Below, piece after piece: positions 16,217-39,122 of a DNA stretch of 64,000 bases. A program made the position numbers and the translations under genes. The notes under the pieces were generated by a model, which worked only from the letters and a program-made list of their open reading frames with translations, ran no database searches and had not been told where the DNA came from. Within the stretch, counting starts at the first letter, position 1; each line of letters starts with the position of its first letter. The stretch lies in IMG/VR virus record IMGVR_UViG_3300008262_000042, positions 64,803-128,802 of that record. One strand, given 5' to 3'. Origin of the DNA: a virus. Its lineage: Duplodnaviria; Heunggongvirae; Uroviricota; Caudoviricetes.

Positions 16217-16379
16217 ATGTCAGGTATGGATTAGTATGTACTAATATTATGTATAGCTATGTAGCTAGTAATAAATATGCTATTAATGTGTTCTCTCTAT
16301 ATTTGCTGCCAAGTTCCTATCCAAATAAACATTCCTATCTTTATTTTACCGTTTCTGTTAAATACGTAAAGTAAACCGC

Positions 16380-22622: not shown

Positions 22623-24260
22623 TTAGATAACATTTGTATCTGCTACTACAACTAAACCATAAAACTCCGGCCTGATCATTGTCATCGCGTAACGAGTCAT
22701 GATACCTTTTCTTGGAGTGAAGGTATTAGGATCGTACACAAGAGGAGTCATGATCAACGGAACATACGGAGAGTAAACGGCACCACACTCAAGGAACTGA
22801 TTACCACGGAAACCTAATAGGATTACGTTTTCAGTCATGTATGGGTTTTTGTATACTTTGTAACGGCTATTTAAAGCACCGATTTTTTGTACACCATAAG
22901 CATACTTCATTGTATCAGCAGCTCCGTCTGTATCAGCAGCAAATCCAGGGATCGATTCAAGGATAGTTGCAACAGTTGGAGATACTACCATGAAGTTAGC
23001 ACCGCCACGTAAAGTACGTTGGTGGATGATGTTAGATACTTTTTGTAGTTTGATACCAAGAGTTTGGAACCAAGTCATTTGAGTGTAATATACACCTGCA
23101 GTATTTGAAGTGAAATCAGTTGCAGCTGCATTAATTTGGTTACCAACCTTAGCTGACCAATACTCAACAGTAGGTGCATTACTGATTAGCATATCCATTA
23201 CTTCAAGATCGATCTCAAGAGAGATGTGCTCAGAAAGGATACCTGTTAATTCAGCTTCAGCATCAAGAGATTGATAAGCATTAAGATCTTGTGCAAATTC
23301 AGGAGTCCATTGTGCTTTTAACTTACGAGTCTTAGCAGAGATGGTTTGGCTCTTCATTTGAACGTTGATCTCAGGGATAACGATTGAAGTTGCAGATGCA
23401 GCGTTAGGCACTGAAGGAAGACCAGTTCTATCTTCGAAATCACCACGTGAGTTGAAGTCTGTTTCCTTACTGTAGAACACTGTCCAAGCAGTACCAGCAG
23501 CTTCAGCTGTAGATGCAGTTACGAAGAACTCGATATTAGCTCCGTTTACTTTTGTAAAGTTTTGTAAAACTTTAGTTCCAGTTGTTGTGAAATTTGAACC
23601 AGAAGTAGGAATGAAAGAACGTACAGCATCTAAATCAGGAGTTAGTAAATTACTGTAAGCTATAGCTACCTTTTTAACTTGACCAGCAACGTAAGAAGCT
23701 GAAAGATCTGCGTTAAAATCGATATCTGCATAAGAAGCAGAAGTGATAGTTGCAGTTCCAGACGCGCTAAATTGGTTAAGTGAATAACCGAATTTACCAG
23801 CGCCATAAAGACCACCAGCAGCTAAGTTACCGAAGTTAGCAGAAGGAGTACCATAAATAGAACTACCTGTAGTGAATGGAGTTTTCTCACTTCCGTATTG
23901 GAAATCAAGATAGAATACTAGACCAGCAGGAAGATTCATAGGTTGTACAGAAACGAATTCTTTAGATGCGATCTGACCCATAATCTTACGAACTAATGGA
24001 AGAGCAACGCCAGCCCATTGTTCACCTGTTCCATTACCACTCCAAGTAGAACCCCCTTGGTTTGTGTTTGTAGTTTCTACTACTAATTGTTTAGCTTGGT
24101 TCTCAAGCAATACTGCCATGCTTTTTTGATCATAATCATGAAGACCTTCTAGAAGTCCAGATTTTGCCCACTTTTTCGTTAGTCTGGCTGATACACCGTC
24201 TTGACTAGCGAAGGCAGTTTGAGCAGATTCGCTTAAAAGCGATTGTACTAAGTTTGCCAT
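22623..24260 (-). CDS. gp23: Major capsid protein, T4 gp23-like
   Basis: LPLVRK..VSVQPMNLPAGLVFYLDF; AKTRKLKAQWTPEFAQDLNAY.SLDAEAELT.ILSE.I.LEID; YSPYVPL; PRKGIMTRYA. Confidence 0.97.
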   Translation of the reverse strand: MANLVQSLLSESAQTAFASQDGVSARLTKKWAKSGLLEGLHDYDQKSMAVLLENQAKQLVVETTNTNQGGSTWSGNGTGEQWAGVALPLVRKIMGQIASKEFVSVQPMNLPAGLVFYLDFQYGSEKTPFTTGSSIYGTPSANFGNLAAGGLYGAGKFGYSLNQFSASGTATITSASYADIDFNADLSASYVAGQVKKVAIAYSNLLTPDLDAVRSFIPTSGSNFTTTGTKVLQNFTKVNGANIEFFVTASTAEAAGTAWTVFYSKETDFNSRGDFEDRTGLPSVPNAASATSIVIPEINVQMKSQTISAKTRKLKAQWTPEFAQDLNAYQSLDAEAELTGILSEHISLEIDLEVMDMLISNAPTVEYWSAKVGNQINAAATDFTSNTAGVYYTQMTWFQTLGIKLQKVSNIIHQRTLRGGANFMVVSPTVATILESIPGFAADTDGAADTMKYAYGVQKIGALNSRYKVYKNPYMTENVILLGFRGNQFLECGAVYSPYVPLIMTPLVYDPNTFTPRKGIMTRYAMTMIRPEFYGLVVVADTNVI

Positions 24261-24295: not shown

Positions 24296-25312
24296 TTATT
24301 TAATACCAGCTAGAACTTGCCATCTATTAACAAAACTATCAGATTCGATAATGTTATTTTTAGGCGCAACTCCAAGTGATTTTGACGCAAATCCAATAGA
24401 TTCTTTTAGTTGTGATTTTTTAGAGCTAAAAGATTCCTTAAGGGTTTCGTACGTGTTTTTAACTTCAGTTACAGATGCATTTCTGTCAAAAGCTTTAATT
24501 ACCTTAATTTTTTCAGACTCAGTTAAAGATTTAGCTTTGAAGATTTTATTCATATAAAGAAGCTTAGCATTAAGAAGATTAATTTCATTGATGCTTTCTC
24601 TTAAAGTGTTAATGGTTTTTCTAGCTAAATTTAGCTCTTCTTCCATTTTCTTCTTTTCTTCATCTTCTTCTTTTTTGCCTTCTTCAATTTCTTCTTCTTC
24701 CTCAACTTTACCGTAGCCTTCTTCTTCAAGTTCAGCAAGAATTTCATCTAAAGATACAGGAGATTCTTCATCGCCCATTTCTTCTTCTGATCCTTCTAAA
24801 CTTTCTTCACCACCTAATGCGCTAAGATCTGGTGCTTGTTCTCCACCCATTACAGATTGTAGAACTTGTTTTAGATCTCCAAGAGTGATGTCAATAACTT
24901 TAGTGTCATCTTCAACTTCTGCTCCTTCAACTTCTTCTTCGCCTTCTTCATCTTCAGATTCTTCATCTTCTTCTTCAGATTCTTCTTCTTCGGCTTCATT
25001 AAGACTTTCGTCTTCTTCTTCCTCTAAAGCGTCAAGTTCAGCTAGAATTTCGTCTAAAGTAGCATCAGTTACTTCTTCAACACCTTCTTCAGTGTGTTGC
25101 ATTCCTTCCTCTTCGTATCCTTCTTCGTAAGTACCTTCTTCAATTTCTTCTTCGATACCTTCTTCGAATTCTTCGGAAAGTTTTAAACGCATCATTTCTT
25201 GAATTTTTGGTTCGATAGCCTCTTGTAAAGTGGCTTTTGCTGTTGCGATTGCACTAGCACGAACTGCTTTTGCGTCAAGAATCGCTTCTTTGTACAATTT
25301 GTTTTGTTCCAT
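24296..25312 (-). CDS. Prohead scaffold/core protein
   Basis: Very acidic coiled coil between protease and major capsid genes, with many (L/I)xE sites; ends FVNRWQVLAGIK. Confidence 0.85.
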   Translation of the reverse strand: MEQNKLYKEAILDAKAVRASAIATAKATLQEAIEPKIQEMMRLKLSEEFEEGIEEEIEEGTYEEGYEEEGMQHTEEGVEEVTDATLDEILAELDALEEEEDESLNEAEEEESEEEDEESEDEEGEEEVEGAEVEDDTKVIDITLGDLKQVLQSVMGGEQAPDLSALGGEESLEGSEEEMGDEESPVSLDEILAELEEEGYGKVEEEEEIEEGKKEEDEEKKKMEEELNLARKTINTLRESINEINLLNAKLLYMNKIFKAKSLTESEKIKVIKAFDRNASVTEVKNTYETLKESFSSKKSQLKESIGFASKSLGVAPKNNIIESDSFVNRWQVLAGIK

Positions 25313-25444
25313 TTTTTGTTTGATTTTTAATTGCTTATTAGTAGATTATGAAAAGCAATATGAGGATTTTTTATTTAGCGCAATAGTGGGATTCGCGCAT
25401 TTACCAATAAATATGTAAGTTTTTGGTAAAATTCAAAAAAACAT

Positions 25445-25467
25445 AAAAAAACCTCCTGAAAAGGAGG
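25445..25467 (-). terminator. Intrinsic terminator after prohead protease
   Basis: CCTCCT-GAAA-AGGAGG stem (25452-25467) followed on the minus strand by T7. Confidence 0.75.
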
Positions 25468-25487
25468 CTATACTTTATTTTTTATTT

Positions 25488-26120
25488 TTAATTTAAACAA
25501 CAAACACCAGACATTTCGCATATCAGATCTCTCATTATTAAATTCGCTTTAGAGTATTTGTTAGGATTTTGTGTAGTATACTGATAAGATTCATTTATTC
25601 CTGATACGTGAGGTCTCATATAAGCTCCATAAGTACTAGGCTGAGATACGAAATCCCAACATATGATATTTAGATCGTCTTCTACTTTTACTAGTCCTTC
25701 ACCGATAGGCGTAACTGATCCCATAGCTCTTGACGATATACCTACGGTTATTTTATTTAAGAATAACTGCGCTAGTATATTACCTGATGGTGTTGGAAGT
25801 ATCTCTACTTTTCCATATAAATCTTTTCCTTTCCACCAAAGCTCTAATATATTATGAGATACATTTTTAAGATTTATTATTTCACTCTCTGGATGATCTA
25901 ATTCTCCTAACGCCCTATTTTCTGATATAGGACCCGCAATATATTTTTCTACTTGAGAATATAATGTATCGTATGGATATATTCTTCTATTTGCGTTTGG
26001 TTTATCGCAAGCTTGCACTAATCCAGTAACAATTATGTTTCCAGCTCTCGCTTGAGTAGATTCTTTTAGTACATTAATTGGTTGGAATAATGAATAATCT
26101 ATTAAGAGTTGTTTCGTCAT
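25488..26120 (-). CDS. gp21: Prohead maturation protease, gp21-like
   Basis: NANRRIYP, ALGELDHP, INLKNVSH, TPSG, GISSRAMGS, WDFVSQPSTYGAY. Confidence 0.95.
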   Translation of the reverse strand: MTKQLLIDYSLFQPINVLKESTQARAGNIIVTGLVQACDKPNANRRIYPYDTLYSQVEKYIAGPISENRALGELDHPESEIINLKNVSHNILELWWKGKDLYGKVEILPTPSGNILAQLFLNKITVGISSRAMGSVTPIGEGLVKVEDDLNIICWDFVSQPSTYGAYMRPHVSGINESYQYTTQNPNKYSKANLIMRDLICEMSGVCCLN

Positions 26121-27610
26121 TATTGTATTTTATTTACCTTAACTGATTTTGCGCCTTGAGACTTTAGTTTATTAACCATTGATTGACCTTTTCCGGGTTG
26201 AGTAACAGCTAAAGTTATATCATTGCCTAAATTATCTTTACCTGTAATTTGTTCTATTGCTTCTAGCATTTTTTTTGCTTTTTCTTTATCTTTTATTTTA
26301 GATATTCTCTCAAAAATGCTTTTAAGTTTTTCTTCAGATGTTAATTCAGCTTTTTTAGGTTCGCTAACTTCTTCTTTTTTTGTTTGTAAAGTGTCTCCAA
26401 AACCTTTCATACTATCGAATTTTGTATCTCTAGTAGCTTTATCGATTACATTTATTTGAAAATCTTTTAAAGATCCATCTCCTAATTTTACAGTTAAAGT
26501 TCCGCCTATGACATCATCTACTATACCTATTCCATCAGGAGTATGTACTTCTGCACCTTTTACGTAAGTATGCATCATATTCTCTAATAAAGAAGATTTT
26601 AATATGCTTAATACGTTTTCTTTTATAGAAATATTACCTATTTTCATAGATTTTTTCTTTTGAAGAAATTCTTGATAATCTTCTGGAGTAAAATATGTAA
26701 AGCGCGCTGAACCTACTTTAATATCCTTTACTTTAACGATTTTTCCTGCATTTACAGCTCTATTTATCATATAAACAGCACCTTGTAATACTTTATCTTT
26801 ATTATTACCATAATTATAGCCTGTTCCATAAGCTTTTAAAGCTAATTCTTTTGTAGTAATACCAGGATATTTTTTAACAAAATCAACTATATCCTGCATT
26901 TTAACTTGATTAGCACTATATTGTTTAGTTGGTAAGTGTTTATAATCAAATGATCTAACATCTTCTTTTATAACCTTTTCAGTTCCAGTAACGCCTTTAT
27001 CTTGCATTACCTTTACACCTTTTGGATTGCCTTTTTTATTCTCTTTCTTTGATGCTTTTGTATTAGCTTTTTCTGCTTTGAATCCTTTGGGTTTAACCAT
27101 AGCATTCTTCTTATCTACTAACTCTTGCTTAAGTTCTTTAGTTTCAAGATCTTTATCAGTCTTATCAACTTCTTTTGCATTTGATGTTACTAGATCTTCG
27201 TAAGCTTTTGGATTCTTTTTTAATTTTTTAGCAACACGAGTTTTAACCTTATCAATAGTAGTATTATCAAAAGTCTTTTCTTTTTTTAGTTCTATCTCTA
27301 TGCCTTTTTTAACTGCGTATGGAGACATACGATCTAATATTTGTTCTGTATCAAGCTTATGCGCCTCTTGTAAAGGTTCTTTATCTTCATATAGACGCGC
27401 ATCAAACATAGCGCCGCTAACCTCTTTAGTTAATTCTTTAGTTTCATTCTCAGATACTAGTCGTTTGCCTTTCAATATATTTATAGCATCATTAAAAGAA
27501 GTTACAGGACTAATAAATTGCGGAAATTGTCTACGAGCTTCTCTAATAAAATATTCGCGGGTAGTTTTACCTTCTTGTAGTTGTTGATAGAGTTTAGTTA
27601 TGTTTATCAT
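26120..27610 (-). CDS. Multi-module head-associated protein (winged-helix-like and KOW/SH3-like modules)
   Basis: Modules separated by LQE/VSE/LQE/IKE/LLE sites; IVDFVKKYPGITTKELA..LVNAGKI-type wHTH; GAEVHTPDGIGIV KOW-like segment. Confidence 0.6.
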   Translation of the reverse strand: MINITKLYQQLQEGKTTREYFIREARRQFPQFISPVTSFNDAINILKGKRLVSENETKELTKEVSGAMFDARLYEDKEPLQEAHKLDTEQILDRMSPYAVKKGIEIELKKEKTFDNTTIDKVKTRVAKKLKKNPKAYEDLVTSNAKEVDKTDKDLETKELKQELVDKKNAMVKPKGFKAEKANTKASKKENKKGNPKGVKVMQDKGVTGTEKVIKEDVRSFDYKHLPTKQYSANQVKMQDIVDFVKKYPGITTKELALKAYGTGYNYGNNKDKVLQGAVYMINRAVNAGKIVKVKDIKVGSARFTYFTPEDYQEFLQKKKSMKIGNISIKENVLSILKSSLLENMMHTYVKGAEVHTPDGIGIVDDVIGGTLTVKLGDGSLKDFQINVIDKATRDTKFDSMKGFGDTLQTKKEEVSEPKKAELTSEEKLKSIFERISKIKDKEKAKKMLEAIEQITGKDNLGNDITLAVTQPGKGQSMVNKLKSQGAKSVKVNKIQ

Positions 27611-27621
27611 ACTAATAAATA

Positions 27622-27750
27622 TTATCTACCTTGTCCACGATACGCTTTTGGACGAGGATTATGTTTGTTATAAGATTTTTGAGCGCTACCTTTTTTTCTT
27701 TTACCGAAACTTATTTTTTTAGCGTCATTGCTACCTTTTGCCTTTGCCAT
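27622..27750 (-). CDS. Small basic peptide ending YRGQGR (42 aa)
   Basis: Below the ORF-track cutoff. Manual translation: MAKAKGSNDAKKISFGKRKKGSAQKSYNKHNPRPKAYRGQGR; fills the gap exactly. Confidence 0.8.
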   Translation of the reverse strand: MAKAKGSNDAKKISFGKRKKGSAQKSYNKHNPRPKAYRGQGR

Positions 27751-27751
27751 C

Positions 27752-28606
27752 TTATTTTATGCTTTTGTATTTTTTGTATATTTCACTAATCGATACTTGT
27801 AATTTTTCCATCAACCTATTTGTATGACTCTTATACTCTTGCAATCCTAACTCCTCTTTCATTGTTTTTACATAATCAATAACCTTCTCTGCTTCTCCTA
27901 ATTTTTTTCTAACTAGCTTCATAGCTTCATGCATTTGTTGCTCCTTACTTCTAACGCTAGTTTCTTTTTTAAAGCGATTATAGTTTTCGTCTATTTTTAG
28001 TATTTTTTGTGGGCCTTTTGGCTCTGAGGGTCTTACTAAATCAGATTCGTGATACATTCCAGATTTCCCGTTTTTAAATTGTATTTTGTACATATTAGAC
28101 TTTTCATCTATCGCATCTATTGTTCCTATCTTATTATATTGAATGGAACCTTTTTTTGTTACTCTAACTTCATCTCCAACGTTATATCGTTCATCTGCTT
28201 CATTAACATTCCATAAATCACTATATTGGAATCCGCCTGTATCTTTAGTATGACCAGCTCTGAATCCTTTTACTGGCTTATATCCTGATAAATCATCTTC
28301 TACAATAATATTGTTTTCTTTGATGTCTCTCATATATCCTTTAGCAGAATCTTGATCAGATGAACTTAGTTTAGCATATGCTGCGATAATATCATCTTTT
28401 CTACGAAGACCTCTTTTAAACTTTTCAAATTCATTTTTAAAATCTTGTAAGGTAATCGTATCGATTCTTTCTGAAACGCCCTTATACTTTTTTTCTGGAA
28501 CGTTTAATGATGGCTTATAGGCTTCTCCAGATCCAGTAACACTATCTTCTTCTATTTCTTCTCTTAGTTTTATAGTTGCAAATTGGTTATTGAATGTCTT
28601 ATTCAT
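27752..28606 (-). CDS. Head-associated multi-module protein with KOW/SH3-like segment
   Basis: IKLREE leader; YNVGDEVRV..G.IDAI...YKIQF KOW-like segment; C-terminal coiled coil. Confidence 0.6.
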   Translation of the reverse strand: MNKTFNNQFATIKLREEIEEDSVTGSGEAYKPSLNVPEKKYKGVSERIDTITLQDFKNEFEKFKRGLRRKDDIIAAYAKLSSSDQDSAKGYMRDIKENNIIVEDDLSGYKPVKGFRAGHTKDTGGFQYSDLWNVNEADERYNVGDEVRVTKKGSIQYNKIGTIDAIDEKSNMYKIQFKNGKSGMYHESDLVRPSEPKGPQKILKIDENYNRFKKETSVRSKEQQMHEAMKLVRKKLGEAEKVIDYVKTMKEELGLQEYKSHTNRLMEKLQVSISEIYKKYKSIK

Positions 28607-28610
28607 ATTA

Positions 28611-29456
28611 TTATTTTTTTAAAATATCAACCAATTCAACATACTGTAATATATTTGAAATTACTTCGTCTTTTATAGATTCGTTTTGCTTAATTGGCTT
28701 AAGTAGTTTAATAGTTTCATTAAGCCTAATTTTTGTAACTTGATCATCAATTGACTCGTATATGGTCAAAAGTTCAGACTTTATTTCTTTGATTATTTTA
28801 TTTAAGTAAGCTTTTAAAGATTCTGTTTCAGATACATTATTAATGTATTCTTTTAGAATTTCTTTTTGTTTAGTAGAAAAGTTAGCATACTTTGTATTAT
28901 ATTTTTCTACCATTAGTTTATATGCTATAAGCCTAATCTCTTTATCCTCTTTCATAAACTCTTCAACTATCGTTGCGCTGGCAGTTTTGTTCTCAATTCC
29001 ACCTTCCGTTATATGCTCTAGGATATTAATTTTATTTAATAGAATTTGTTTAGTATCTACTTCTTTATTTTGATTAGACTCAAATATAGTATATATCGCA
29101 GCGTAGATTTTATAATTATCTATTTTAGCTTTAAAGAAATTATCTATATCATAGCTTCTTTTAATCTCTTTTATAAGATTATACTTTTCTCTATTTAGCT
29201 TATTATTATCTAATTTCTTTCTTTGCTCTAGTATTGTATTAATATACATCTCTGCTTTTGCTTCAGAAAGTTTTTGAGTAGTATTGAATGTCGAATACAA
29301 TGCATACTCTTTTCCCAATTCTGTGTTAGTAAAATACTTTTTTAGTATTTTAACTGATACTGAATCTTTGTTTTGTATCAAATCTGCGGTGGTTTGTCTA
29401 ACTAATAATTCAAACAAGATCGCGGGATTTCGATATTTACTGTGCTTTATGCGCAT
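28611..29456 (-). CDS. Conserved-looking head protein next to portal
   Basis: IKHSKYRNPAILFELLVRQ N-terminus, helical, directly downstream of the portal gene. Confidence 0.6.
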   Translation of the reverse strand: MRIKHSKYRNPAILFELLVRQTTADLIQNKDSVSVKILKKYFTNTELGKEYALYSTFNTTQKLSEAKAEMYINTILEQRKKLDNNKLNREKYNLIKEIKRSYDIDNFFKAKIDNYKIYAAIYTIFESNQNKEVDTKQILLNKINILEHITEGGIENKTASATIVEEFMKEDKEIRLIAYKLMVEKYNTKYANFSTKQKEILKEYINNVSETESLKAYLNKIIKEIKSELLTIYESIDDQVTKIRLNETIKLLKPIKQNESIKDEVISNILQYVELVDILKK

Positions 29457-29493
29457 ATTTGTTGTTATATTCTACCTATAAATATATAATTAA

Positions 29494-31416
29494 TTACTTA
29501 GAATCGTCTAATATGTTTTTTTCATCTAAAACACTTGGAGATTCATACAATTTTATTTTTCTATTAAAATTTAATGACTCTAGCATCTTTTTATTTTTCA
29601 TATACTCACTCATAGTTCCTTCCATAGCTAATGGTCCTCCTCTATAAGTGGGCTTTAAAGCATCTTCACCCGCATTTGGTTTAGCTTTCATATCATAAGC
29701 ACCTAATGGATCTCTTCCAAATGGACTATCATCAGTTTTTATTTTAGACGCTTTTGTTGAAGGTCGACCTGGAGATTCATATTGATCTTTTGGCTTAGTT
29801 TCATCATATCCAGTAGGAACGTTTAATGACATATCTCCTTTTCCTCCATATAAACTAGCTAATTGGTGAGGCGTTCCAAATGCTTGACCTGTTTCAGAAG
29901 GATCATTTCCTTCTTCTGCAATTTGTTTAAATCTAAATGCTCTCTTTTGGTCTTCTACGATCATATCTTCTAATTCACTATATTGATCTTCAGAGAAGTG
30001 GAATACTTTATCATATATATAATCTTTAGGTAATAATTGACCTTCCATCGCAGCTTTAGCTAATTCAATCTTTTCTTTAAATAAAGCAACGCGTTCTTGA
30101 TCATATATGATAGATGGATTCGTAAGCGAAATTGTAAAATTAGCAGCTGATTCGTTTGTGTAACCATGCGCGTATAAATGTACTAATCCTATCTTTGTTA
30201 ATTCAGATATAATGATTTTTTGTATACGTTCAATAGTTCTAGCAAATCTAATATCTTCAGCCGCTAATGTTGCTTTACCAGTTAAATCTTTTTCATATCC
30301 CATAAATGCTTTAGGCACTTTAAGGGCAGCAAATAGCTTTTCTCTAAAATAAGTAACGTCTTCGATACCATTATAGTCTAAACCTTTTGCGGTTTCTATT
30401 TTTGTAGTTTGGTCATTTCCTCTAACTGGTATTACGAAATCCTCTAACATATTTTGTACGTTATACTTTAGATTGTAATTTCCAGTATTTGGATCAATCA
30501 AAGGAGTTTTTTTCATCTTATTCATCATCCTTTGAATGTAATTTTCTACTTCTGCAGGAGGTATTGCTCCAACATTAACATAGAATACACGTCTTTCTGG
30601 AGCTCTTGCTATTCTATGAATTAGCATCGCATCTTCGATAAGCGTATATTGCTTAAACAGTTTTCTAGCAGGTTCTAAGTAAGATCTACCATAAGGCAGA
30701 TAATTTACGTCTCCTGCTAATCTAAAGTGAGCAATTTCGAAATTATCAAAATAAATTCCAGTATCTTGATTATTAAAAGCAGAACCATATCCAGTAGTTG
30801 ATGCAATCGCTGCATTTGGATCGTACTTAAATCTAACTTCACTTGGGTTTTCAGGATTAAAACCCTCTTGTCTAACTATATTATACGCTGAGAATGGTAT
30901 TACATTGTATACTCCAAAACCTTCAGCTATTTCTAATTTAAGATAGAAATCTCCATATTTGCACATGTAACGTATCCATGACCATAGAGAAAATTCTATA
31001 TTTAAAATAGAATAATATAGGTTGTATAAAATCTTTTGTATGTTCTCATCAGAAGATCTAATTTGTAATACTTCCCCTTGTTCATTTTTTAATGTACACT
31101 CATCACATATAATATCTAAAGCAGATGCTACAATTGCATCTGTGTCCATAGCATCATAGTCTGCGTATATTTGAACTCTCGCTGATTGATAGTTTTGAGC
31201 AAGATTCATATTAACACCATACGCAGTAGACGTAGTGTATACTTTATGAAATCTATCGATTATACTATTAGTCTGTATTACACCTGATGTTTGTATTTTA
31301 TCAGTGTCAATGACTTTTACCATACCTCCGCCTTCATTTCTTATGATAACGTCAGTAGAAAATAGTCGTCTTAGTGAGCTAAATAAATTAGCTTGTGGTT
31401 TTTTTTCTTGTTCCAT
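29494..31416 (-). CDS. gp20: Portal protein, gp20-like
   Basis: Y.DYDAMDTD..VASALDII.DE; GRSYLE.ARK.FKQ..LIEDAMLIHRIARAPERRVFYVNVG.IPP; EDFVIPVRG...T.IET..G. Confidence 0.95.
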   Translation of the reverse strand: MEQEKKPQANLFSSLRRLFSTDVIIRNEGGGMVKVIDTDKIQTSGVIQTNSIIDRFHKVYTTSTAYGVNMNLAQNYQSARVQIYADYDAMDTDAIVASALDIICDECTLKNEQGEVLQIRSSDENIQKILYNLYYSILNIEFSLWSWIRYMCKYGDFYLKLEIAEGFGVYNVIPFSAYNIVRQEGFNPENPSEVRFKYDPNAAIASTTGYGSAFNNQDTGIYFDNFEIAHFRLAGDVNYLPYGRSYLEPARKLFKQYTLIEDAMLIHRIARAPERRVFYVNVGAIPPAEVENYIQRMMNKMKKTPLIDPNTGNYNLKYNVQNMLEDFVIPVRGNDQTTKIETAKGLDYNGIEDVTYFREKLFAALKVPKAFMGYEKDLTGKATLAAEDIRFARTIERIQKIIISELTKIGLVHLYAHGYTNESAANFTISLTNPSIIYDQERVALFKEKIELAKAAMEGQLLPKDYIYDKVFHFSEDQYSELEDMIVEDQKRAFRFKQIAEEGNDPSETGQAFGTPHQLASLYGGKGDMSLNVPTGYDETKPKDQYESPGRPSTKASKIKTDDSPFGRDPLGAYDMKAKPNAGEDALKPTYRGGPLAMEGTMSEYMKNKKMLESLNFNRKIKLYESPSVLDEKNILDDSK

Positions 31417-31423
31417 ATTATTA

Positions 31424-33019
31424 TTATAATAACCAAGTTAAGTCTTGATCTCCAACATTACCATCGGGTAATTGAAGTTTCATACTCCATTGATTATAAT
31501 TATCGTGTATAAAGTTTTGTGTAGGATATTGATTGCTTGTATTGCTTATATTATTTATAGAAGCAGCAGTTAGGCTATCCATAGTTTTTCTAAATCTTAA
31601 AGATGTTTCTCTTAAGTACATTCCCATTGAGAATGACATTACCAAATCATCATTATAACCTTGCATCGCTTGTTGTTTACCATTTTTCCATATAAATACT
31701 CTAAGCTCTTCTAATAATCTTATAGATCTTATAGTTACTACTTTATTTTCTATAAAGTCTCTCATTTTATCTATAGCTATTGGTCTAGTTTTTTGACTCA
31801 TAGTGAATCCTGGAACTAATCCTGATCCTCTATCAAACTTATCAATATACTTTTCAAATGAGCTATCAGCTTCAATTCTATGTCCATAATGCATATTGGG
31901 ATAGCCTTTTTCAATTATGCTTTGTATAACGTCCCAACCAATATTTGCATTTTCAACTACTAAAAGAGCTTGATTATACTCATTCGATATAGATAATAGT
32001 ATATTTGCATATTCTCTTGTATCTATTTGTGCTTTATATTCTGCTACTTGAGTGAGAGTTTCTACGTCTATAACATGAAAAGCAGAATAGTCTGATCCAT
32101 CTCCTCGAGCAACGTCAGCTAATACAACATAGTACCTAACTGGATCAGGATATTCCCATATCCATAAAGATTTATCCATACCTCTACGTTCTATAGGGTC
32201 TGAGATCATATTCATTTCATACCATGTCAAAATCTCTGGTTCAATTACGCCCGCGCCTGATGTTGCGAAATCACAATCACACTCTTGAGCTGCATTTCTA
32301 ACGCCTAATTCTTTTGTTTGTTGTTCTCTCCACTCTTCATCTCTTTCTGGATGTACTGTCCATGGTAGAGATATTGGTAAAAATCTATTCTCTCTTTTTT
32401 GAGCTTTTGTGTAAGTTTTGTGAAACCAGTTTCCTATACCATTAGGCGTAGATAATGCTATACATCTACCACCTGTAGCAAGAGTTTGTTGAGCCGCTGT
32501 AAATATTTCTTCGATTCTATCAATAAATGCAGCTTCGTCTATTACTAGTAAAGATACAGCTTCAGAACGAGTTGCATCACCAGCTGCAGATACAGCTTTT
32601 ATTTGGGAGCCATTTGTTAATCTTAAACTAAGTCTATTATCTTCAGTATGACCTATTTTTAACCAAGTAGGTAGATTTTGGTATGCAAACCTTACTTTGG
32701 TTACCATGTTTTTTGCAGTAGATTGTGTAGTAGCGACTACGAGTACGTTTTTATCTTTATTAAAAAGCATCAACCATAGTGAGTAAGCTGATACTAGCGT
32801 AGAAATCCCTAACTGTCTAGATTTATTAATTACGCAATATTCATTACCTTGAAAAAGCAATAATACTTTTTGTTGGAAATCATATAAATCAAATAACTGT
32901 CTCCCTTTTGTAGGATGTTGGATCATGTAATACTTACGCATAAAGTACACAGGATCACTTGCGCATTTTAAAAATTCTGATTTGATTCTATCTCGTATGG
33001 TTTGTTTGCTTTCTTCCAT
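31424..33019 (-). CDS. gp17: Terminase large subunit, gp17-like
   Basis: LYDFQ, INKSRQLGIST (Walker A), LVIDEAAFI (Walker B), LSTPNG.GNWF, ADVARG.GSDYS, GYNDDLVMS. Confidence 0.97.
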   Translation of the reverse strand: MEESKQTIRDRIKSEFLKCASDPVYFMRKYYMIQHPTKGRQLFDLYDFQQKVLLLFQGNEYCVINKSRQLGISTLVSAYSLWLMLFNKDKNVLVVATTQSTAKNMVTKVRFAYQNLPTWLKIGHTEDNRLSLRLTNGSQIKAVSAAGDATRSEAVSLLVIDEAAFIDRIEEIFTAAQQTLATGGRCIALSTPNGIGNWFHKTYTKAQKRENRFLPISLPWTVHPERDEEWREQQTKELGVRNAAQECDCDFATSGAGVIEPEILTWYEMNMISDPIERRGMDKSLWIWEYPDPVRYYVVLADVARGDGSDYSAFHVIDVETLTQVAEYKAQIDTREYANILLSISNEYNQALLVVENANIGWDVIQSIIEKGYPNMHYGHRIEADSSFEKYIDKFDRGSGLVPGFTMSQKTRPIAIDKMRDFIENKVVTIRSIRLLEELRVFIWKNGKQQAMQGYNDDLVMSFSMGMYLRETSLRFRKTMDSLTAASINNISNTSNQYPTQNFIHDNYNQWSMKLQLPDGNVGDQDLTWLL

Positions 33020-33020
33020 A

Positions 33021-33461
33021 TTACTTTAGCATATACAATACTGCAAAGGTTCCTGTAAGAACACCTATGGTAATTTTAAAAATTGTATTTTTTGCAATTG
33101 TTTTTTTATATTCTACTTGAAGTTGTTTATATTGTCCTCTCCATAAAGAAGCTCTTGACTTTTCAGCTTGTATTAACTGCACATAATAGTCTTCTTTCTC
33201 TTGATAGAATTTTATGATAGTATCTTTAAGAGCGATTTTTTCTTTTGTTAATAGTAATTGTTGGCGAGTTAATTTTAATTCTGCTATTGCGCTATCTCCG
33301 ATGATTAGATCTTTTACTACTCGTTTTGCTACATATCCAGGTAATTTTATTGTATCACTTATAAAATAAGTTACGTTACCATTAAAATCATATACTGGCT
33401 TTGTTTGTGATTTTACAGTTAATGAAAAAAATAAAAGTATTAGTAAAATGCATTTATTCAT
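33021..33461 (-). CDS. Secreted/membrane coiled-coil protein (spanin-like candidate)
   Basis: N-terminal signal-like segment, coiled coil, C-terminal hydrophobic helix. Confidence 0.5.
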   Translation of the reverse strand: MNKCILLILLFFSLTVKSQTKPVYDFNGNVTYFISDTIKLPGYVAKRVVKDLIIGDSAIAELKLTRQQLLLTKEKIALKDTIIKFYQEKEDYYVQLIQAEKSRASLWRGQYKQLQVEYKKTIAKNTIFKITIGVLTGTFAVLYMLK

Positions 33462-33473
33462 ATTATTACGATT

Positions 33474-33833
33474 TTAGTAATTATATCTAATTTTAAAGAA
33501 AGAATCTATTTGACTTGAGTTATAATTATCCGCTTTTTTACTTATTTCATGATAGTATTCTCTAACAATAGTTGTTTTTTCTTTTATGTTATCTATCTTA
33601 TAATCAATATCAGAAATTTCATGTTTCGTTTCTTTTATTAGACTATCATATTTTAGTTGAGCAGCTTCTAATTTTTTTGTACTTTTATCGATCTCCTCTA
33701 ATTTATAATCTAGTATAGAAGTGTCTATAGGTTTTTCAAAAACTACAATAAATAGTAAATATGCAATAGACACTAAAATTATTATGTCTATAATATTTCT
33801 ACTAGTAAATAATGAATTTATTTTATTTTTCAT
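33474..33833 (-). CDS. Membrane-anchored coiled-coil protein (spanin-like candidate)
   Basis: N-terminal TM helix IIILVSIAYLLFIVVF followed by coiled coil. Confidence 0.5.
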   Translation of the reverse strand: MKNKINSLFTSRNIIDIIILVSIAYLLFIVVFEKPIDTSILDYKLEEIDKSTKKLEAAQLKYDSLIKETKHEISDIDYKIDNIKEKTTIVREYYHEISKKADNYNSSQIDSFFKIRYNY

Positions 33834-33858
33834 ATACTTTTATTAATAAATATGTATA

Positions 33859-34332
33859 CTAGCTATATAGCCAATTAGGGATATTTTCTGCTCTATCGTA
33901 TTTTAAACCCTTTATTAGTATCTTATCGTATAGATAAAAGTTTCTATATGCTGTTACAGTATCTACATTTTTATACTCATCAGGCATACATTGTGGTGGT
34001 TCTACAAATGCTAAGTCCGGTATATTTGGTTTATTTTTGTCTAGCCATGCAATTACTGATTCAGTTTTATGAACTTTTTTGTATCTGCGATTGTACTCTT
34101 TAAATATCTCTTTCGCGTGATTTAATAACCATTCGTAGTGATAAATTGATTGTCTAGTCCAAATTGTAGATGGATGATTTACGTGTGCTTTTTTATATGG
34201 AGCTTCATTATCAGTTAACCAATGCGCAGTACACATCATTTGTGCAGACTCTATACCCATTTTTAAAATGTGTTGATCACATAAATCTTTAGCTGCTAAT
34301 ATTGGGTCTTGATGGAGATAAAAAATATTCAT
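33859..34332 (-). CDS. denV: Pyrimidine-dimer DNA glycosylase / endonuclease V-like
   Basis: MNIFYL..DP..AA...CDQH..KM..ESAQM.CTAH; HVNHPST.W; EY..RY.K.H; PPQCMPDEYK..D.V.AYR.FY. Confidence 0.75.
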   Translation of the reverse strand: MNIFYLHQDPILAAKDLCDQHILKMGIESAQMMCTAHWLTDNEAPYKKAHVNHPSTIWTRQSIYHYEWLLNHAKEIFKEYNRRYKKVHKTESVIAWLDKNKPNIPDLAFVEPPQCMPDEYKNVDTVTAYRNFYLYDKILIKGLKYDRAENIPNWLYS

Positions 34333-34342
34333 AACTTTTTTC

Positions 34343-34354
34343 TTAAATATAACA
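34343..34354 (-). promoter_or_regulatory. Extended -10-like promoter of denV-like gene
   Basis: TGTTATATTTAAG on the minus strand about 10 nt above the ATG; similar to the elements at 49459 and 21856. Confidence 0.5.
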
Positions 34355-34382
34355 ATTATTTACTAATCTATATATTTTATTT

Positions 34383-36485
34383 TTATTGTGCTTTTAATTC
34401 TTGTACCTCTATTCTTATTTCAGAACCAGAAAACCTAAATACCAATTTCGTAGAATAATTTTTTTTACCTAATTTAGTAATATATGATAGCATAAAACCA
34501 GCTTGTTTTGGAGAATCTATTAAAGTCATTTTTGTACTACTAGAATCTATATCAACTTCTGATTTTGCATCGAAATAATCAGTATGTCCTATTAGTGTTT
34601 TAGAACTACCAATAACTTTATAAAAACTCGGACTTAAACCAGCTTCAGCTATAGCAAATGCAGTTAAAGCAACGAATGGATTTGTAATCTCTTGTATTTT
34701 TTTATACGCTGGGGATATTTTAGCATTTTTATCTGTCCATTTATCAATGATTAAACTTGCTAATTCATACGTAGCAGTCTTCATAGATAATACTTTTATG
34801 TAATCTTCATTTTCTTTTTCTATCTCTTTAGAAAACTTATTATTATCTTCTGCGCTTACTTCTATTTCATATTTTTTTATATCATCTATAAATTTATCTC
34901 TACTAGTAATAAATGACTTTTTTACCTTCGTTGTAGAATCACCCCCAGTCATTTTATTTTTTAAAGATTTTATAGAAGATTCTATATCATCAAATAATTG
35001 TTTATTTGCTTTATAAAAAGCATCTTCTGATTGAAATTCACTTTTTATATTAGTAGTTTTTATTTTTGATTTTCCTGCTGCTTGAAGTATTGAATTAACC
35101 GATCCATGCAATTTTTTATCTTTTGTTATAGCATTTATATAACTTTGAGATCGTCTTCCACCTCTTTTTGGACCATAATAATAATCTTCAAATCTTGCTA
35201 TTTTTGCTGATATTTTAGCTAAGTCTTTATTATCTGATGTACCATATTTATCATCTGGATTTACATCAGCATCAAAACTATTACTAAATACAGTATTAGC
35301 AAAAGTTGTAGCTTTTCCAGCTTGTGCTTTTTCTTCTTTTAAAGATATAGCTATTAAATCTCCATCTTTTTCAAATTGATGATTTAAACTTGATTTTCCT
35401 ATATTAACAGTATCTGCTTTTAAACAATTTGATATACTTGATTGATTTAATACTAAATAAACGTCGCCTGGACACCAGTTATCAGCTTGTAATGATACAT
35501 TATACTGTTCTTTTATTAATGAAACAGCTTTTTGTCTAATCTTATCAAAGTCTTCATTCCTAATTATTCTACCTTCTGTAGAAATATCTTTATGTATAGA
35601 TGCGGCTGCTGATATAGCGTTTGTTAAAGTGTCTACCTCTTGTCTAGATAAGAAAACATATTTAATATATAAATCTAGATTCTCTGGCATAGATTTGCCT
35701 ACGCCATAGTATTGTTTATTTTTATTATATACTTGAGCTATTTTATCAACTATTTTTTTTATATCGTCTTCTACAATTTGCTCAGCCGCTTGTTTTGTTG
35801 TAACTATAGCGTGTAATTCTTCTATATCTTTAACTAAAGAAGAGTCTTTAAAAACATCATAAAATAAACAAACTAATCCCTCTTTTAAAGAAATTTCATT
35901 ACCAGTATTTGGTCTTTTCATGTCTGTTGCGGCTTCTGTTAATACTAGCTTTTTTAATATATGCTTTAATATTACTGATTCTGCCAGTGTCTCTTCTTCA
36001 CCTCCCGCTTCTGGTGTAGTTTCTGCTGGTTCTGTTGTTGATTCTCCAGCATCTTCAGCTTCTGGACCTTGTTCAGATCCTTCAGGGCCTTTTGTTTTTA
36101 ATGGAGATCCAAATCTTAACAATCTTGCAATAGCTTGCATACATAATTGCTTCTCTCCTGTAGTCATTAGGTAATAATTTTTACCTGATATTGTAGCTTG
36201 ATACGCCTTTTCTAAATACGTAAGAAAGAAGTATTGTCCGTTATGTAATAATATTTTAAATGTTGTTGGTTTTGGAGCAACGATAAATATGGCATCTAAG
36301 TACTCTTTAAATGATGGAGTCATTAATTCACTTAATAACTCATTCAAAGTTACATACTTCTTTAATATAAATCCCATAGGATCTTTTTCAAATGGAGATT
36401 GACTTTGATCTTCTTCTTTTTTAGCATCTTCTTCGTCTATCTCTCTTAATAATATATTTTTTAGTATTAAAGAGTCCATATTCAT
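34383..36485 (-). CDS. Head-associated protein fused to PD-(D/E)xK-like nuclease domain
   Basis: N-terminal ~165 aa domain plus acidic linker, then LVLTE|A and a domain with WCPGDVYLV...IAISLK. Confidence 0.5.
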   Translation of the reverse strand: MNMDSLILKNILLREIDEEDAKKEEDQSQSPFEKDPMGFILKKYVTLNELLSELMTPSFKEYLDAIFIVAPKPTTFKILLHNGQYFFLTYLEKAYQATISGKNYYLMTTGEKQLCMQAIARLLRFGSPLKTKGPEGSEQGPEAEDAGESTTEPAETTPEAGGEEETLAESVILKHILKKLVLTEAATDMKRPNTGNEISLKEGLVCLFYDVFKDSSLVKDIEELHAIVTTKQAAEQIVEDDIKKIVDKIAQVYNKNKQYYGVGKSMPENLDLYIKYVFLSRQEVDTLTNAISAAASIHKDISTEGRIIRNEDFDKIRQKAVSLIKEQYNVSLQADNWCPGDVYLVLNQSSISNCLKADTVNIGKSSLNHQFEKDGDLIAISLKEEKAQAGKATTFANTVFSNSFDADVNPDDKYGTSDNKDLAKISAKIARFEDYYYGPKRGGRRSQSYINAITKDKKLHGSVNSILQAAGKSKIKTTNIKSEFQSEDAFYKANKQLFDDIESSIKSLKNKMTGGDSTTKVKKSFITSRDKFIDDIKKYEIEVSAEDNNKFSKEIEKENEDYIKVLSMKTATYELASLIIDKWTDKNAKISPAYKKIQEITNPFVALTAFAIAEAGLSPSFYKVIGSSKTLIGHTDYFDAKSEVDIDSSSTKMTLIDSPKQAGFMLSYITKLGKKNYSTKLVFRFSGSEIRIEVQELKAQ

Positions 36486-36512
36486 ACTTATGTGTTTTTA
36501 CTTTATATAACT

Positions 36513-36974
36513 TTATTCACCTGAGTGGTCTAACTCATGAAATCCTTGATTTGCTTGCTCTATAAAATTTTCAGCGTTAGTTATGTGATCTTGAATCCAG
36601 CCGGGAATGTTTCTTTCCATTCCACCTAATTTATCCATAAGTTGGGAAGCATTACTAACTATTTCTTTTAGACTGCTCATAGCCATCGCTACTTCATGAT
36701 CAGCGCCTTCTTTAATTTCCTCTTTATATGGTGATAGTTGATCAAGCTTTGCATTAGCTGCTCCTAATCTATACTTATTTTTTTGTCCTTTATTAAGAAT
36801 TGGTTGTATATTGTAGCTACCATCATCTTTAATTGCGATGATTTTATGTTTAAGCCCTTTATGTGCACCTACATTAGGAACAACAAAATCTCCAACTTTA
36901 TGATTCTCTGATAATTCTGCCTCTTGTTCTTCTCTTAGTAAGCTTACTAATGATTGTAATGATACATTTTTCAT
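36513..36974 (-). CDS. Head-associated two-module protein
   Basis: LVSLLREE leader; KOW-like KVGDFVV segment; IKE|GADHEVAMA..W.QDHIT helical module. Confidence 0.6.
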   Translation of the reverse strand: MKNVSLQSLVSLLREEQEAELSENHKVGDFVVPNVGAHKGLKHKIIAIKDDGSYNIQPILNKGQKNKYRLGAANAKLDQLSPYKEEIKEGADHEVAMAMSSLKEIVSNASQLMDKLGGMERNIPGWIQDHITNAENFIEQANQGFHELDHSGE

Positions 36975-37264
36975 TTTACTATTAATCTAGATGTTTTATT
37001 TCTTAGTTTTTTAACTTGATCTCTTATTACAATTAGTGGACTATCAGGATTTATGTTAGCTAAAAATTTATAAAGATCAGATAGCTTTTCATACACCTCT
37101 TTTGGATCTACATCATAACTTACATCCCAACCCATTTTTCCAGTACTTGGATCAATATCAGTTAATTTTGTAGTTATTCCTGAATCTGTAGTAGTTTTAC
37201 CTATATTAGTTTTACTAACATCTACGTAAGGTTCCTCTTGTAATATGGTCATTAATTTAATCAT
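36971..37264 (-). CDS. Hypothetical protein with MIKLxxILxE leader
   Basis: Starts MIKLMTILQEE. Confidence 0.7.
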   Translation of the reverse strand: MIKLMTILQEEPYVDVSKTNIGKTTTDSGITTKLTDIDPSTGKMGWDVSYDVDPKEVYEKLSDLYKFLANINPDSPLIVIRDQVKKLRNKTSRLIVK

Positions 37265-37283
37265 CCTACTCTATATAAATATG

Positions 37284-37493
37284 CTAAGATCTATTAGATG
37301 CTTTTTTGAATAAGAAATATAATCCAAGAAATAAAAGCGCAGCGAAATAGAAAAGTAAATCCGTAATTAAGTAAGAATCTGTCAAGTCCATTACTAGTTT
37401 GAATAATATGTCGAAGCCAAGCGGGTTGAAAAACATCGCTAGCATCAGACACGTTGTAGCTACATTGCTTAAGAATTTCGATCTCCAAGTCAT
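37284..37493 (-). CDS. Small two-helix membrane protein
   Basis: Two hydrophobic helices around FFNPLGFDILF. Confidence 0.6.
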   Translation of the reverse strand: MTWRSKFLSNVATTCLMLAMFFNPLGFDILFKLVMDLTDSYLITDLLFYFAALLFLGLYFLFKKASNRS

Positions 37494-37595
37494 TTATTCT
37501 TTTTTGGATTTTACTGTCTTCTTCCATAAATGGATTTTGGTGAATAATATCGCAACTTAGTTTATCGTTTAAATTTTATACAGATAAAGGAAATA

Positions 37596-37889
37596 CTAAA
37601 AAAAGCCGCTAGGAGGAGTTGATAACTCTTCAGGAGTATCATTTCCAAATATAGTTTGAAGAACTAAATCAGAACGAAGCGACGGAAAATCTTTTTCAAT
37701 AGCAGCTCCTAAAGCATCGTAATCTTTATTAGCAATTAAGCTTGAATATTTTTTGGTTATATAATTTATTACTGGAGCCATAAAATCCTCTTCACTATGC
37801 ATCTCCCCCATCATTTCCATATTCCTATCTTCCTTAATAATACCAGCTAATTGCTGCATTCTTTTTGTTTCGTTAAGTTGTTGTTTCAT
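37596..37889 (-). CDS. LAGI-leader protein 1
   Basis: Starts MKQQLNETKRMQQLAGIIKE. Confidence 0.75.
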   Translation of the reverse strand: MKQQLNETKRMQQLAGIIKEDRNMEMMGEMHSEEDFMAPVINYITKKYSSLIANKDYDALGAAIEKDFPSLRSDLVLQTIFGNDTPEELSTPPSGFF

Positions 37890-37901
37890 ATTTTTATTAT
37901 T

Positions 37902-38207
37902 TTATATATGTGATAATGGTCCTCTACCGCCTGCTGGATCTAATTCATCATCCCACATACTATCAATAGCATCGTCTTCATCTGATGTATATGTATCTTC
38001 TATTCCTAGTAAACCATTTAATAATTCTTCTCTATTTGCTAATCCTCCTTCTCCATCAATAACAATAAATTCTTCCATTCCATCTTGTTTCGCCCATTTA
38101 ATAAGATCAGCATCAGACATACTATCATATCTTGATAAATCAGCTCCTTCTTTTAAGATACCTGCTAGTTGCTGCATTCTTTTTGCTTCATTAATATATT
38201 TCTTCAT
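37902..38207 (-). CDS. LAGI-leader protein 2
   Basis: Starts MKKYINEAKRMQQLAGILKE at 38207 (track start 38264 is probably too far upstream, judged from the repeated leader). Confidence 0.75.
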   Translation of the reverse strand: MKKYINEAKRMQQLAGILKEGADLSRYDSMSDADLIKWAKQDGMEEFIVIDGEGGLANREELLNGLLGIEDTYTSDEDDAIDSMWDDELDPAGGRGPLSHI

Positions 38208-38229
38208 ATTTTTATTATTTTGTATATTT

Positions 38230-38487
38230 TTATTTTTGAAATCCATCTTTTGAATACTTCTCAAAATAATCTCTAGCTAAATCAAAAGCCATAATTGATA
38301 TATCATCAGCCATTTTTTTATCAAATGGTTTTCCAATAATAGATTTTAAATACGTATCAATTTTTTTATATGTAGGAAGCCGAAGCCGATTTTTATGTAT
38401 TGGAGATATTACTTCATTTAATTGAGATTGTTTATCAACGCCAGCTAACTCTTGCAGTCTTTTAGTTTCATTAATTTCTTGTTTCAT
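38230..38487 (-). CDS. LAGI-leader protein 3
   Basis: Starts MKQEINETKRLQELAGVDKQSQLNE. Confidence 0.75.
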   Translation of the reverse strand: MKQEINETKRLQELAGVDKQSQLNEVISPIHKNRLRLPTYKKIDTYLKSIIGKPFDKKMADDISIMAFDLARDYFEKYSKDGFQK

Positions 38488-38499
38488 ATTTTTATTATT

Positions 38500-39111
38500 T
38501 TATACTACTTTAATACCAATTTTATTAGCTACTGTTTTAGCAATTCCAATAATCTCAGTAGCTTTAATTCCACCTAATGTAGCCTCTATTGCCTTAATCA
38601 CTGGTGATGCTGGTGATAATATTGTTTTTAATGCAGTACCTGCTGCGAGTGCTAGTATTAATGCAAATATTACTTTTGCGACAAGTTCTAGCTTTTCTTC
38701 ATCAACTTGTTTTTCTTTTTTCCAAAGATTTTCTAAAAATCCAGTATATTTTACTGCTTTTTTTATTATTGTTATATATAATTTTTCCCACTTATGTGCA
38801 AACTTTTCAATAGATTTAGCGATTTGACTTTCATCTTTTTTAGAAAAAGTTTTAACTAAATAATTTATAGATTTCGCTATCCATTCAATTATTTTAGGTG
38901 CGGCTAATAAACCACTAGCAACCATTGCGCCTAAAGCTTCATTTATTTGCCCTTCTTTTTTAGGTTGTTTAGCTTTATATCCTTCTAAAATAGATAAATT
39001 TGATTTTAGAGCAGTATACGCATCTGACATACCTTTGTCTACTTCGCTATCGACTTCTGCTTCTGATAATGTCTCTAATATTAAGTGTTTTACGAAAAGT
39101 TTATTATTCAT
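38500..39111 (-). CDS. Head-associated protein with hydrophobic helices
   Basis: LILETLSE leader (start MNNKL at 39111 preferred over 39129); QINE|ALGAMVASGLLAAP and VIFALILALAAG hydrophobic segments. Confidence 0.6.
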   Translation of the reverse strand: MNNKLFVKHLILETLSEAEVDSEVDKGMSDAYTALKSNLSILEGYKAKQPKKEGQINEALGAMVASGLLAAPKIIEWIAKSINYLVKTFSKKDESQIAKSIEKFAHKWEKLYITIIKKAVKYTGFLENLWKKEKQVDEEKLELVAKVIFALILALAAGTALKTILSPASPVIKAIEATLGGIKATEIIGIAKTVANKIGIKVV

Positions 39112-39122
39112 GTTATATATTT

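Follow-up and report, generated by a model that had tools for sequence, protein, structure and literature searches.

Encapsulins load their cargo through a short terminal peptide, by which diverse proteins are directed into an HK97-fold shell; these compartments lack a scaffold, a portal, and a maturation protease, and the cargo keeps its peptide. In herpesviruses, the protease and the scaffold encoded by UL26/UL26.5 share a C-terminal capsid-binding tail, which the maturation protease removes at the M site. Phage T4 carries the capsid targeting sequence (CTS) MKTYQEFIAE on IPI, IPII, IPIII, and Alt (Mullaney and Black 1996, as reviewed in PMC9026906 and PMC3012670); T-even phages have diverse internal proteins that share only the CTS, a cleavable N-terminal address (PMC3012670, PMC9026906), and the protease gp21 cleaves after L/I-x-E (PMC9026906). 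In T4, a CTS mutated in its cleavage motif (E to D) is still packaged, and how the CTS brings proteins to the prohead has been an open question since the 1990s. In phage 80alpha, the scaffold has at its extreme C terminus an 11-residue amphipathic helix and a 5-residue RIIK hook that bind the capsid N-arm and the A/P cleft (PMC5644958), and the CpmB protein of SaPI1 carries the same helix and hook and competes for the capsid site (PMC5644958; PDB 6B0X and 6B23). Here we analyze a stretch of 64,000 nucleotides (the window; positions 64,803 to 128,802 of IMG/VR record IMGVR_UViG_3300008262_000042) that is part of the 179,597-bp genome of one large, aquatic T4-type phage, in which the C-terminal tail of the head scaffold recurs as an N-terminal leader on small accessory proteins. 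Judging from its sequence and context, this leader is most likely an address label that loads unrelated small proteins into the forming virus head.

Results

The motif R[MLW]Q.LAG[IV] occurs five times in the six reading frames of the whole genome, where residue frequencies predict 0.001 occurrences, and it did not appear in any of 100 shuffles. One copy is the tail of the scaffold, and the other four lie at residues 10 to 17 of the products of three tandem open reading frames (ORFs) and a fourth gene. An initial annotation of this DNA had claimed that the scaffold's C-terminal motif is copied at the start of the three tandem ORFs, and these counts bear the claim out.

The gp22-like head scaffold gene (24296..25312, minus strand) is flanked by the Peptidase_S77 protease gene and the Gp23 capsid gene and encodes 338 aa, in the order of an N-terminal helix, a long acidic region, a C-terminal three-helix domain, a flexible linker, and the terminal tail. 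Its product resembles T4 gp22 in gene position and in its N-terminal sequence; we found 2138 homologues, none of them named and none with a Pfam family, and searches of the scaffold against Pfam and PHROG likewise found no family. The protein ends NNIIE followed by SDSFVNRWQVLAGIK and the stop codon, with the motif copy forming the final 15 residues (24299..24343, minus strand) immediately after an I-I-E protease-type motif at 24344-24352. An AlphaFold2 (AF2) model of the last 110 residues places helices at 2-32, 37-48, and 53-68 (predicted local distance difference test, pLDDT, above about 90), then a 29-residue low-confidence linker, and then the tail as a helix, SFVNRWQVL (98-106), with a non-helical end, AGIK. 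The three-helix domain adjoining the tail is confidently folded and highly conserved. A sequence search of the PDB with a profile of the scaffold C terminus returned no solved chain at a meaningful E-value.

To see how widely the tail is kept, we surveyed the scaffolds upstream of 78 related capsid loci in IMG/VR. The consensus I(V/I)E-xDxF(V/I)xR(W/M)Q(K/Q)LAGI(I)K (here and below, a hyphen follows each cleavage-type motif) is present in 78/78 of these scaffolds, always 0 to 5 residues before the stop and 9 to 10 residues past an I-x-E motif, and its R, A, and G are invariant in an alignment of 56 scaffold sequences. More distant tails are SRWQKLAGIIK in the Flavobacterium phages vB_FspM_immuto (immuto), ERMKKLAGIVK in Microcystis phage Mel-JY01, and SRMQKLADIS in the 484-kb uncultured phage LR756508, each running to the stop codon. 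The peptide that the leaders copy, as the initial annotation had it, is the very one that all 78 related scaffolds surveyed have kept.

The three tandem ORFs begin MKQQLNETKRMQQLAGIIKE (37596-37889), MKKYINEAKRMQQLAGILKE (37902-38207), and MKQEINETKRLQELAGVDKQSQLNE (38230-38487), all on the minus strand. Leader gene A (37596..37889) encodes 97 aa, of which residues 1-20 (37830-37889) form the leader, MKQQLNE-TKRMQQLAGIIKE-; it matches the leader profile described below in the 66-bit class, and its payload is acidic (isoelectric point, pI, 4.3). Leader gene B (37902..38207; 101 aa) has its leader at residues 1-20 (38148-38207), MKKYINE-AKRMQQLAGILKE-, ahead of a very acidic payload (pI 4.05, net charge -17), and a metagenomic homologue, P0007, carries the same leader. 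Because all leaders begin with MK, nine residues before the R of the motif, the true start of gene B is evidently the ATG at 38207 and not the mechanically listed TTG at 38264. The 85-aa product of leader gene C (38230..38487), of which a near-identical metagenomic copy exists (P0004), has a longer leader (residues 1-25, 38413-38487; MKQEINE-TKRLQELAGVDKQSQLNE-) and a basic payload (pI 9.4). The fourth leader gene lies outside the window (G000:132757-133146) and begins MKQIINEAKRLQKLAGILTE. Searches of the leader proteins against Pfam and PHROG found no family.

Directly before the ATG of gene A stands a 14-nt stretch, AAAATAATAAAAAT (37890..37903, minus strand), which is repeated before genes B (38208-38221) and C (38488-38501). 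The identity of this upstream DNA extends over 14 nt in all three genes and 16 nt in two. The repeat indicates that a 5' cassette has been duplicated or homogenized in this genome. A separate recurrent motif, (C)ATATTTAT(A), lies about 15 to 30 nt upstream of many start codons, among them those at 21745, 22528, 27610, 29456, 33833, and 37264 and that of the fourth leader gene (G000:133146); it may represent a promoter of the phage. It is absent in front of the tandem leader genes, which are probably cotranscribed from upstream. Between leader gene A and the next gene is a strongly hydrophobic 69-aa ORF (37284-37493, minus strand), which overlaps a 77-aa ORF in another frame.

A profile of 30 positions built from the four leaders was searched against 1.84 billion cluster representatives (clusters at 50% identity) and recovered 820 protein clusters at E <= 1e-3. 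The initial annotation had proposed a profile search of this kind to list the payloads, and it places the leader on hundreds of unrelated proteins. Among the best 150 matches, the leader starts at residue 1 in 146; its general form is MKxx(I/L)NE-xKRMQQLAG(I/L)(I/L)xE-, with a consensus over the best matches of MKQQINE IKRMQQLAGIIKE SQLNE in which R, Q, L, A, and G are near-invariant. The first (I/L)NE falls at residues 5-7, 141/146 leaders have an E four residues past the G, preceded at a distance of two residues by I, L, or V, and a third motif, LNE, is present in about half. Across 33 distinct DNA segments that encode leaders, the same five core residues each draw on 2 to 4 synonymous codons (such as AGA/CGT/CGC and TTA/CTA/CTT), and selection therefore acts on the peptide and not on a nucleotide element.

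What follows the leader differs from protein to protein. A comparison of 140 payloads by BLAST left 115 unrelated groups, in keeping with the earlier claim of unrelated payloads behind a common leader, and Pfam gave 7 sporadic matches for 150 leader proteins. Payloads have a median length of about 98 residues and are mostly acidic (median pI 4.8). They contain modestly fewer [IL]xE motifs than expected (187 versus 226; z = -2.8); the same motifs are enriched 1.8-fold in the scaffold family, whose sequences are phylogenetically non-independent, and 1.18-fold in the genome's other long ORFs. Cargo that survives the protease and a scaffold built for degradation would give this pattern. The module is also found internally and C-terminally in some proteins, and (I/L)xE motifs bracket it in every case, including the internal copies (P0001, P0008, P0013, and P0026). 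The initial annotation's (I/L)xE cleavage motifs at the leader are seen as bracketing motifs, in a phage that encodes a gp21-type protease (PF03420). The metagenomic protein P0124 (194 aa) has the module at both ends, as an N-terminal leader, MNNDFKRLQELAGLLTE, and near its C terminus, KRMQELAGIVKEETEYT.

For the payload of the fourth leader gene, a search of the ESM Atlas returned no meaningful match, and a homologue search returned close relatives only, plus P0151. The latter is ~45-52% identical and has a diverged segment (KVRQLVREVLSE) at the leader position and an extra 27-residue N-terminal extension, showing that the leader can decay or be replaced. A reading of the leader as a signal peptide or lipoprotein signal was rejected, as the leader is hydrophilic and charged.

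Among cultured phages, tblastn with a 32-aa consensus leader matched the immuto phages only; a 24-aa leader gave no match, which under short-query statistics is no proof of absence. Complete genomes hold 0 to 8 leader genes, with four in the phage studied here and two in immuto, immuto26A_188 and a 131-aa ORF at MW353175:25061. Mel-JY01 and one uncultured relative (G002) have the tail and no leader genes, and the tail is therefore the primary element and the leaders are accessory. Conversely, 4 of 5 large leader-bearing contigs encode a tailed scaffold, the fifth being a half-genome fragment.

In some relatives, leader genes stand within the head module itself. The gene order in G003 is portal, orf281-like, leader gene, orf284-like, orf496-like, protease, leader gene, scaffold, and capsid, and G001 has one leader gene between portal and protease; the T4 core genes 67 and 68 sit at the matching position. 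On another contig, the 765-aa protein P0013 (L170:6027-8324) is encoded between the Peptidase_S77 and scaffold genes and holds two internal module copies with cleavage-type motifs around each (VQE-MKQNINE-VKRMQQLAGLLTE- and VKE-MKRLQQLAGILNE-), an arrangement suggestive of a polyprotein made up of three cargo units. An HExxH motif (SprT-like, E = 0.15) is found in the first segment of P0013 and a DGHHR motif (ParBc_2, E = 0.12) in the second; both matches fall below the Pfam threshold and are leads only.

A second, shorter type of N-terminal leader, M(I/K)(K)L..(L)L.E, is found on ORFs neighboring the tandem leader genes (34383-36485, 36513-36974, 36971-37264, 38500-39129, 39123-39716, 40101-40469, and 40479-40850, all minus strand). 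Examples are MKLIDLLSE, MIKLTELMNE, MIKLMTILQE, MKNVSLQSLVSLLRE, and MNMDSLILKNILLRE, and P0013 starts MIKLLNIIEE. This type is nearer to the T4 CTS in format, and the phage may use two types of address. One of these ORFs, which adjoins the leader genes (39123-39716, minus strand), contains DUF5661 (PF18905), a domain that occurs also between the portal and protease genes of a relative (L170:4392-5411); this distribution hints that the block from 36.5 to 42 kb encodes head-associated proteins.

The head module of the phage lies on the minus strand and comprises the large terminase, Portal_T4, three unnamed ORFs, Peptidase_S77, the acidic 338-aa scaffold, and Gp23. It starts with the portal protein of the T4 gp20 family (29494..31416; Pfam PF07230 Portal_T4, E = 4e-71) and includes the prohead maturation protease, a T4 gp21 homologue (25488..26120; Pfam PF03420 Peptidase_S77, E = 6e-23; phrog_207 head maturation protease, E = 6e-47), and the major capsid protein of the T4 gp23 family (22623..24260; Pfam PF07068 Gp23, E = 4e-76). 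With all three families above their cutoffs and the scaffold beside them, this phage has the portal, protease, scaffold, and capsid protein of the T4 head machinery. The capsid protein has tblastn matches in 2485 T4-type phage records and a conserved N-terminal segment, RLxKKWxKSGLLEGL, similar to LLNKWKPLLEGEGL of T4 gp23; its gene, and only that gene, has 73% DNA identity to the immuto phages, the closest cultured relatives. The window has a single gp23-like gene beside the scaffold; G003 has two adjacent ones (L159:12986-14653 and 14728-16434), probably capsid and vertex proteins. Directly after the capsid gene is an ORF with a GIY-YIG-like N terminus (YLFTFPNGKYYVGRT; 21959-22528, minus strand), and in T4 the same place after gene 23 is occupied by segD. 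Between the terminase region and a 700-aa ORF lies a pyrimidine-dimer DNA glycosylase of the T4 endonuclease V type (PF03013; 33859-34332, minus strand).

Discussion

The reading that we favor, to which we lend somewhat more belief than doubt, is that the leader is a prohead-targeting propeptide of the T4 CTS kind whose core has been copied from the C-terminal anchoring peptide of the scaffold, with the capsid protein as the preferred partner. It draws on the shared motif and its positions, conservation at the level of the peptide, flanking motifs, modular payloads, and head-module context, from which we infer the following steps. During head assembly, the gp22-like scaffold would be tethered through its flexible linker and the terminal peptide FVxR(W/M)QxLAGI(I)K-COOH, with the inner face or N-arm of the gp23-type capsid protein as the most likely site of attachment, on the model of 80alpha. 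Purely by analogy with the scaffolds of P22, phi29, and 80alpha, the tail may be regarded as a coat-binding element. Accessory proteins with MKxx(I/L)NE-xKRMQQLAG(I/L)(I/L)xE would present the same peptide, occupy some of the same sites, and become enclosed. The gp21-type protease would then cut after the flanking (I/L)xE motifs, freeing each payload of its leader and clipping the tail off the scaffold body; the scaffold fragments would exit, and the payloads, with a median of about 100 aa and mostly acidic, would remain in the head, probably to be delivered with the DNA. Even taken by itself, the opening stretch of seven residues in the leader, MKxx(I/L)NE, resembles a minimal CTS.

A bolder version, which we regard as conceivable but on balance doubtful, holds that this clade runs a natural encapsulin-like loading code, with the anchor peptide copied as a protease-removable module onto >800 families that compete with the scaffold for capsid sites and the payloads acting as premade effectors injected with the DNA, for example, against host defenses. 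If so, the sequence of an uncultured phage would reveal its injected proteome, and a 13-residue peptide would allow a test of how capsid targeting works at the molecular level, a question never solved for T4.

Several observations weigh against the favored reading, the weightiest being that the tail is always at a free C terminus while the chain of the leader runs on into its payload; if docking needs a free end or a hook, leader and tail cannot bind identically. The isolated leader is modeled by AF2 as one continuous confident helix over residues 1-20, with no hook. Leaders almost always have M where about half of the tails have W, and leaders showed no covariation with the tail of the same genome. 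In this genome, 12 kb separate the tandem leader genes from the head module, and none of these genes has its own promoter-like motif. Small proteins packaged by T-even phages have been described as basic (PMC9026906), whereas the payloads here are mostly acidic, and the affinity attributed to the T4 CTS is for the core and not for the coat (PMC9026906). Neither S-PM2 nor the KVP40-like vibriophage CZ01 has a copy of its scaffold tail motif, MAAYL, elsewhere in the genome, and tail copying is therefore lineage specific and no general rule of T4-type phages. Finally, a literature search found no proteomics of the immuto phages, the only cultured leader carriers. Neutral on the question is a complex prediction that paired the capsid protein alignment with the C-terminal 110 residues of the scaffold; its score of 0.01 speaks neither for nor against docking.

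The address role could also be kept with a different partner, the tail and the leader docking on the scaffold core, for example, at its three-helix domain or on another core protein, so that cargo copolymerizes with the core instead of binding the coat, which is also the assumption for the T4 CTS. T4 internal proteins copurify with gp22, and the CTS has been described as having affinity for the core (PMC9026906); the conserved, confidently folded domain beside the tail could be the receptor, and a contact between tail and body would explain why every scaffold has a tail. We nevertheless consider such a partner unlikely, given that the extreme C-terminal helix is the coat anchor in the structures of the 80alpha scaffold protein and CpmB (PMC5644958) and that a flexible linker of 29 residues suits a tether reaching to the shell. 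Quite improbable, in our judgment, is that the module is a processing cassette, a docking element for the gp21-type protease on transient core proteins that, like T4 gp67 and gp68, are degraded and expelled. Such a role would fit the constant bracketing of the module, internal copies too, by (I/L)xE motifs and the placement of relatives' leader genes at the gp67/gp68 position, and site selection by gp21 is an acknowledged gap (PMC9026906); but a protease exosite gives no reason for the motif to stand at the extreme end of the scaffold, away from its many other cleavage motifs, the depletion of [IL]xE in payloads is as expected of proteins meant to survive the protease, and a payload set that varies in number and identity, from 0 to 8 per genome, is ill suited to essential assembly parts.

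It is very improbable that the leader has no role in the capsid at all and is instead a handle for recombination or expression, or a generic amphipathic helix for oligomerization or binding of a host factor, whose likeness to the tail is convergence. Convergence would not easily produce eight identical residues shared with a motif that the genome has nowhere else, the variety of synonymous codons excludes an element acting purely at the nucleotide level, and the leader occurs in phages with a tailed scaffold and within head modules. The 14-nt upstream stretch common to the three genes does make spread by recombination possible, the leader is a simple and, in the AF2 model, confidently helical peptide, and the three tandem genes lie outside the head module; a recombination handle, however, is compatible with an address function and is no replacement for it.

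Should the favored reading be right, the consequences reach beyond this phage. A label recognizable as the scaffold's own terminal anchor would turn “affinity for the core” into a concrete hypothesis, that of the same peptide at the same site in competition with the scaffold. With the 30-position profile, hundreds of small phage proteins that otherwise defy annotation come to light as candidates for being carried in the virion and possibly injected, and this set could be useful in searches for effectors against host defenses. That scaffold and cargo of an HK97-fold shell may share one docking peptide is relevant to the proposal that procapsids and encapsulins are linked in evolution (PMC13669383). 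For loading proteins into phage capsids, a short tag that removes itself could also be useful.

Comparison with known systems

A literature search for the motif strings found no paper with this motif, and the closest described relative in format is the T4 CTS. Both are short N-terminal propeptides on unrelated small proteins, both end in L/I-x-E, and in both cases the number and content of the genes vary between relatives. The leader consensus, MKQQINEIKRMQQLAGIIKE, nevertheless has nothing in common with the CTS beyond MK at the start and (I/L)xE at the end; at 20 to 25 residues, it contains two or three cleavage-type motifs in succession. In its core it matches the scaffold tail exactly, whereas the T4 CTS is unlike the tail of gp22, and the module occurs here also internally and C-terminally, on payloads that are mostly acidic. 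The initial annotation had called this a code distinct from the T4 CTS, which holds for the sequence, unrelated to MKTYQEFIAE, and does not hold for the format, an N-terminal propeptide ending in (I/L)xE on diverse small proteins. The scaffold tails of T4, S-PM2, CZ01, pf16, and a Campylobacter phage likewise have a short helix after a Glu motif, with differing sequences.

In architecture, the tail is most like the anchor of 80alpha and CpmB, a match that on our side comes from an AF2 prediction: an amphipathic helix with an invariant small Ala and a 4- to 5-residue hydrophobic and basic end (GI(I)K here and RIIK there) lies behind a flexible linker, and a second protein carries a copy of the anchor, which in the 80alpha system means access to the procapsid interior. 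There, however, the mimic is the alternative scaffold of a satellite, with a C-terminal motif that serves capsid-size piracy and that no protease removes, and the mimic is not itself cargo; here, the phage itself bears the copies, at the N termini of many of its payloads and with a cleavage motif after them. No sequence homology to solved chains emerged with a profile of the scaffold C terminus, and the GI(I)K and RIIK ends are a resemblance only.

The herpesvirus system offers the parallel of two internal proteins that have the same capsid-docking tail and are clipped by the maturation protease, although sharing is achieved there through nested genes and is confined to the protease, with no portable tag on many unrelated proteins. 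With encapsulins, the common ground would be a short peptide that serves diverse proteins as an address for the inside of an HK97-fold shell, and parallels between scaffold and cargo have been discussed in that context (PMC13669383). The difference is that the peptide described here belongs to a genuine virus head with portal, protease, scaffold, and terminase genes and that the leader, with a cleavage motif after it, is predicted to be cut off.

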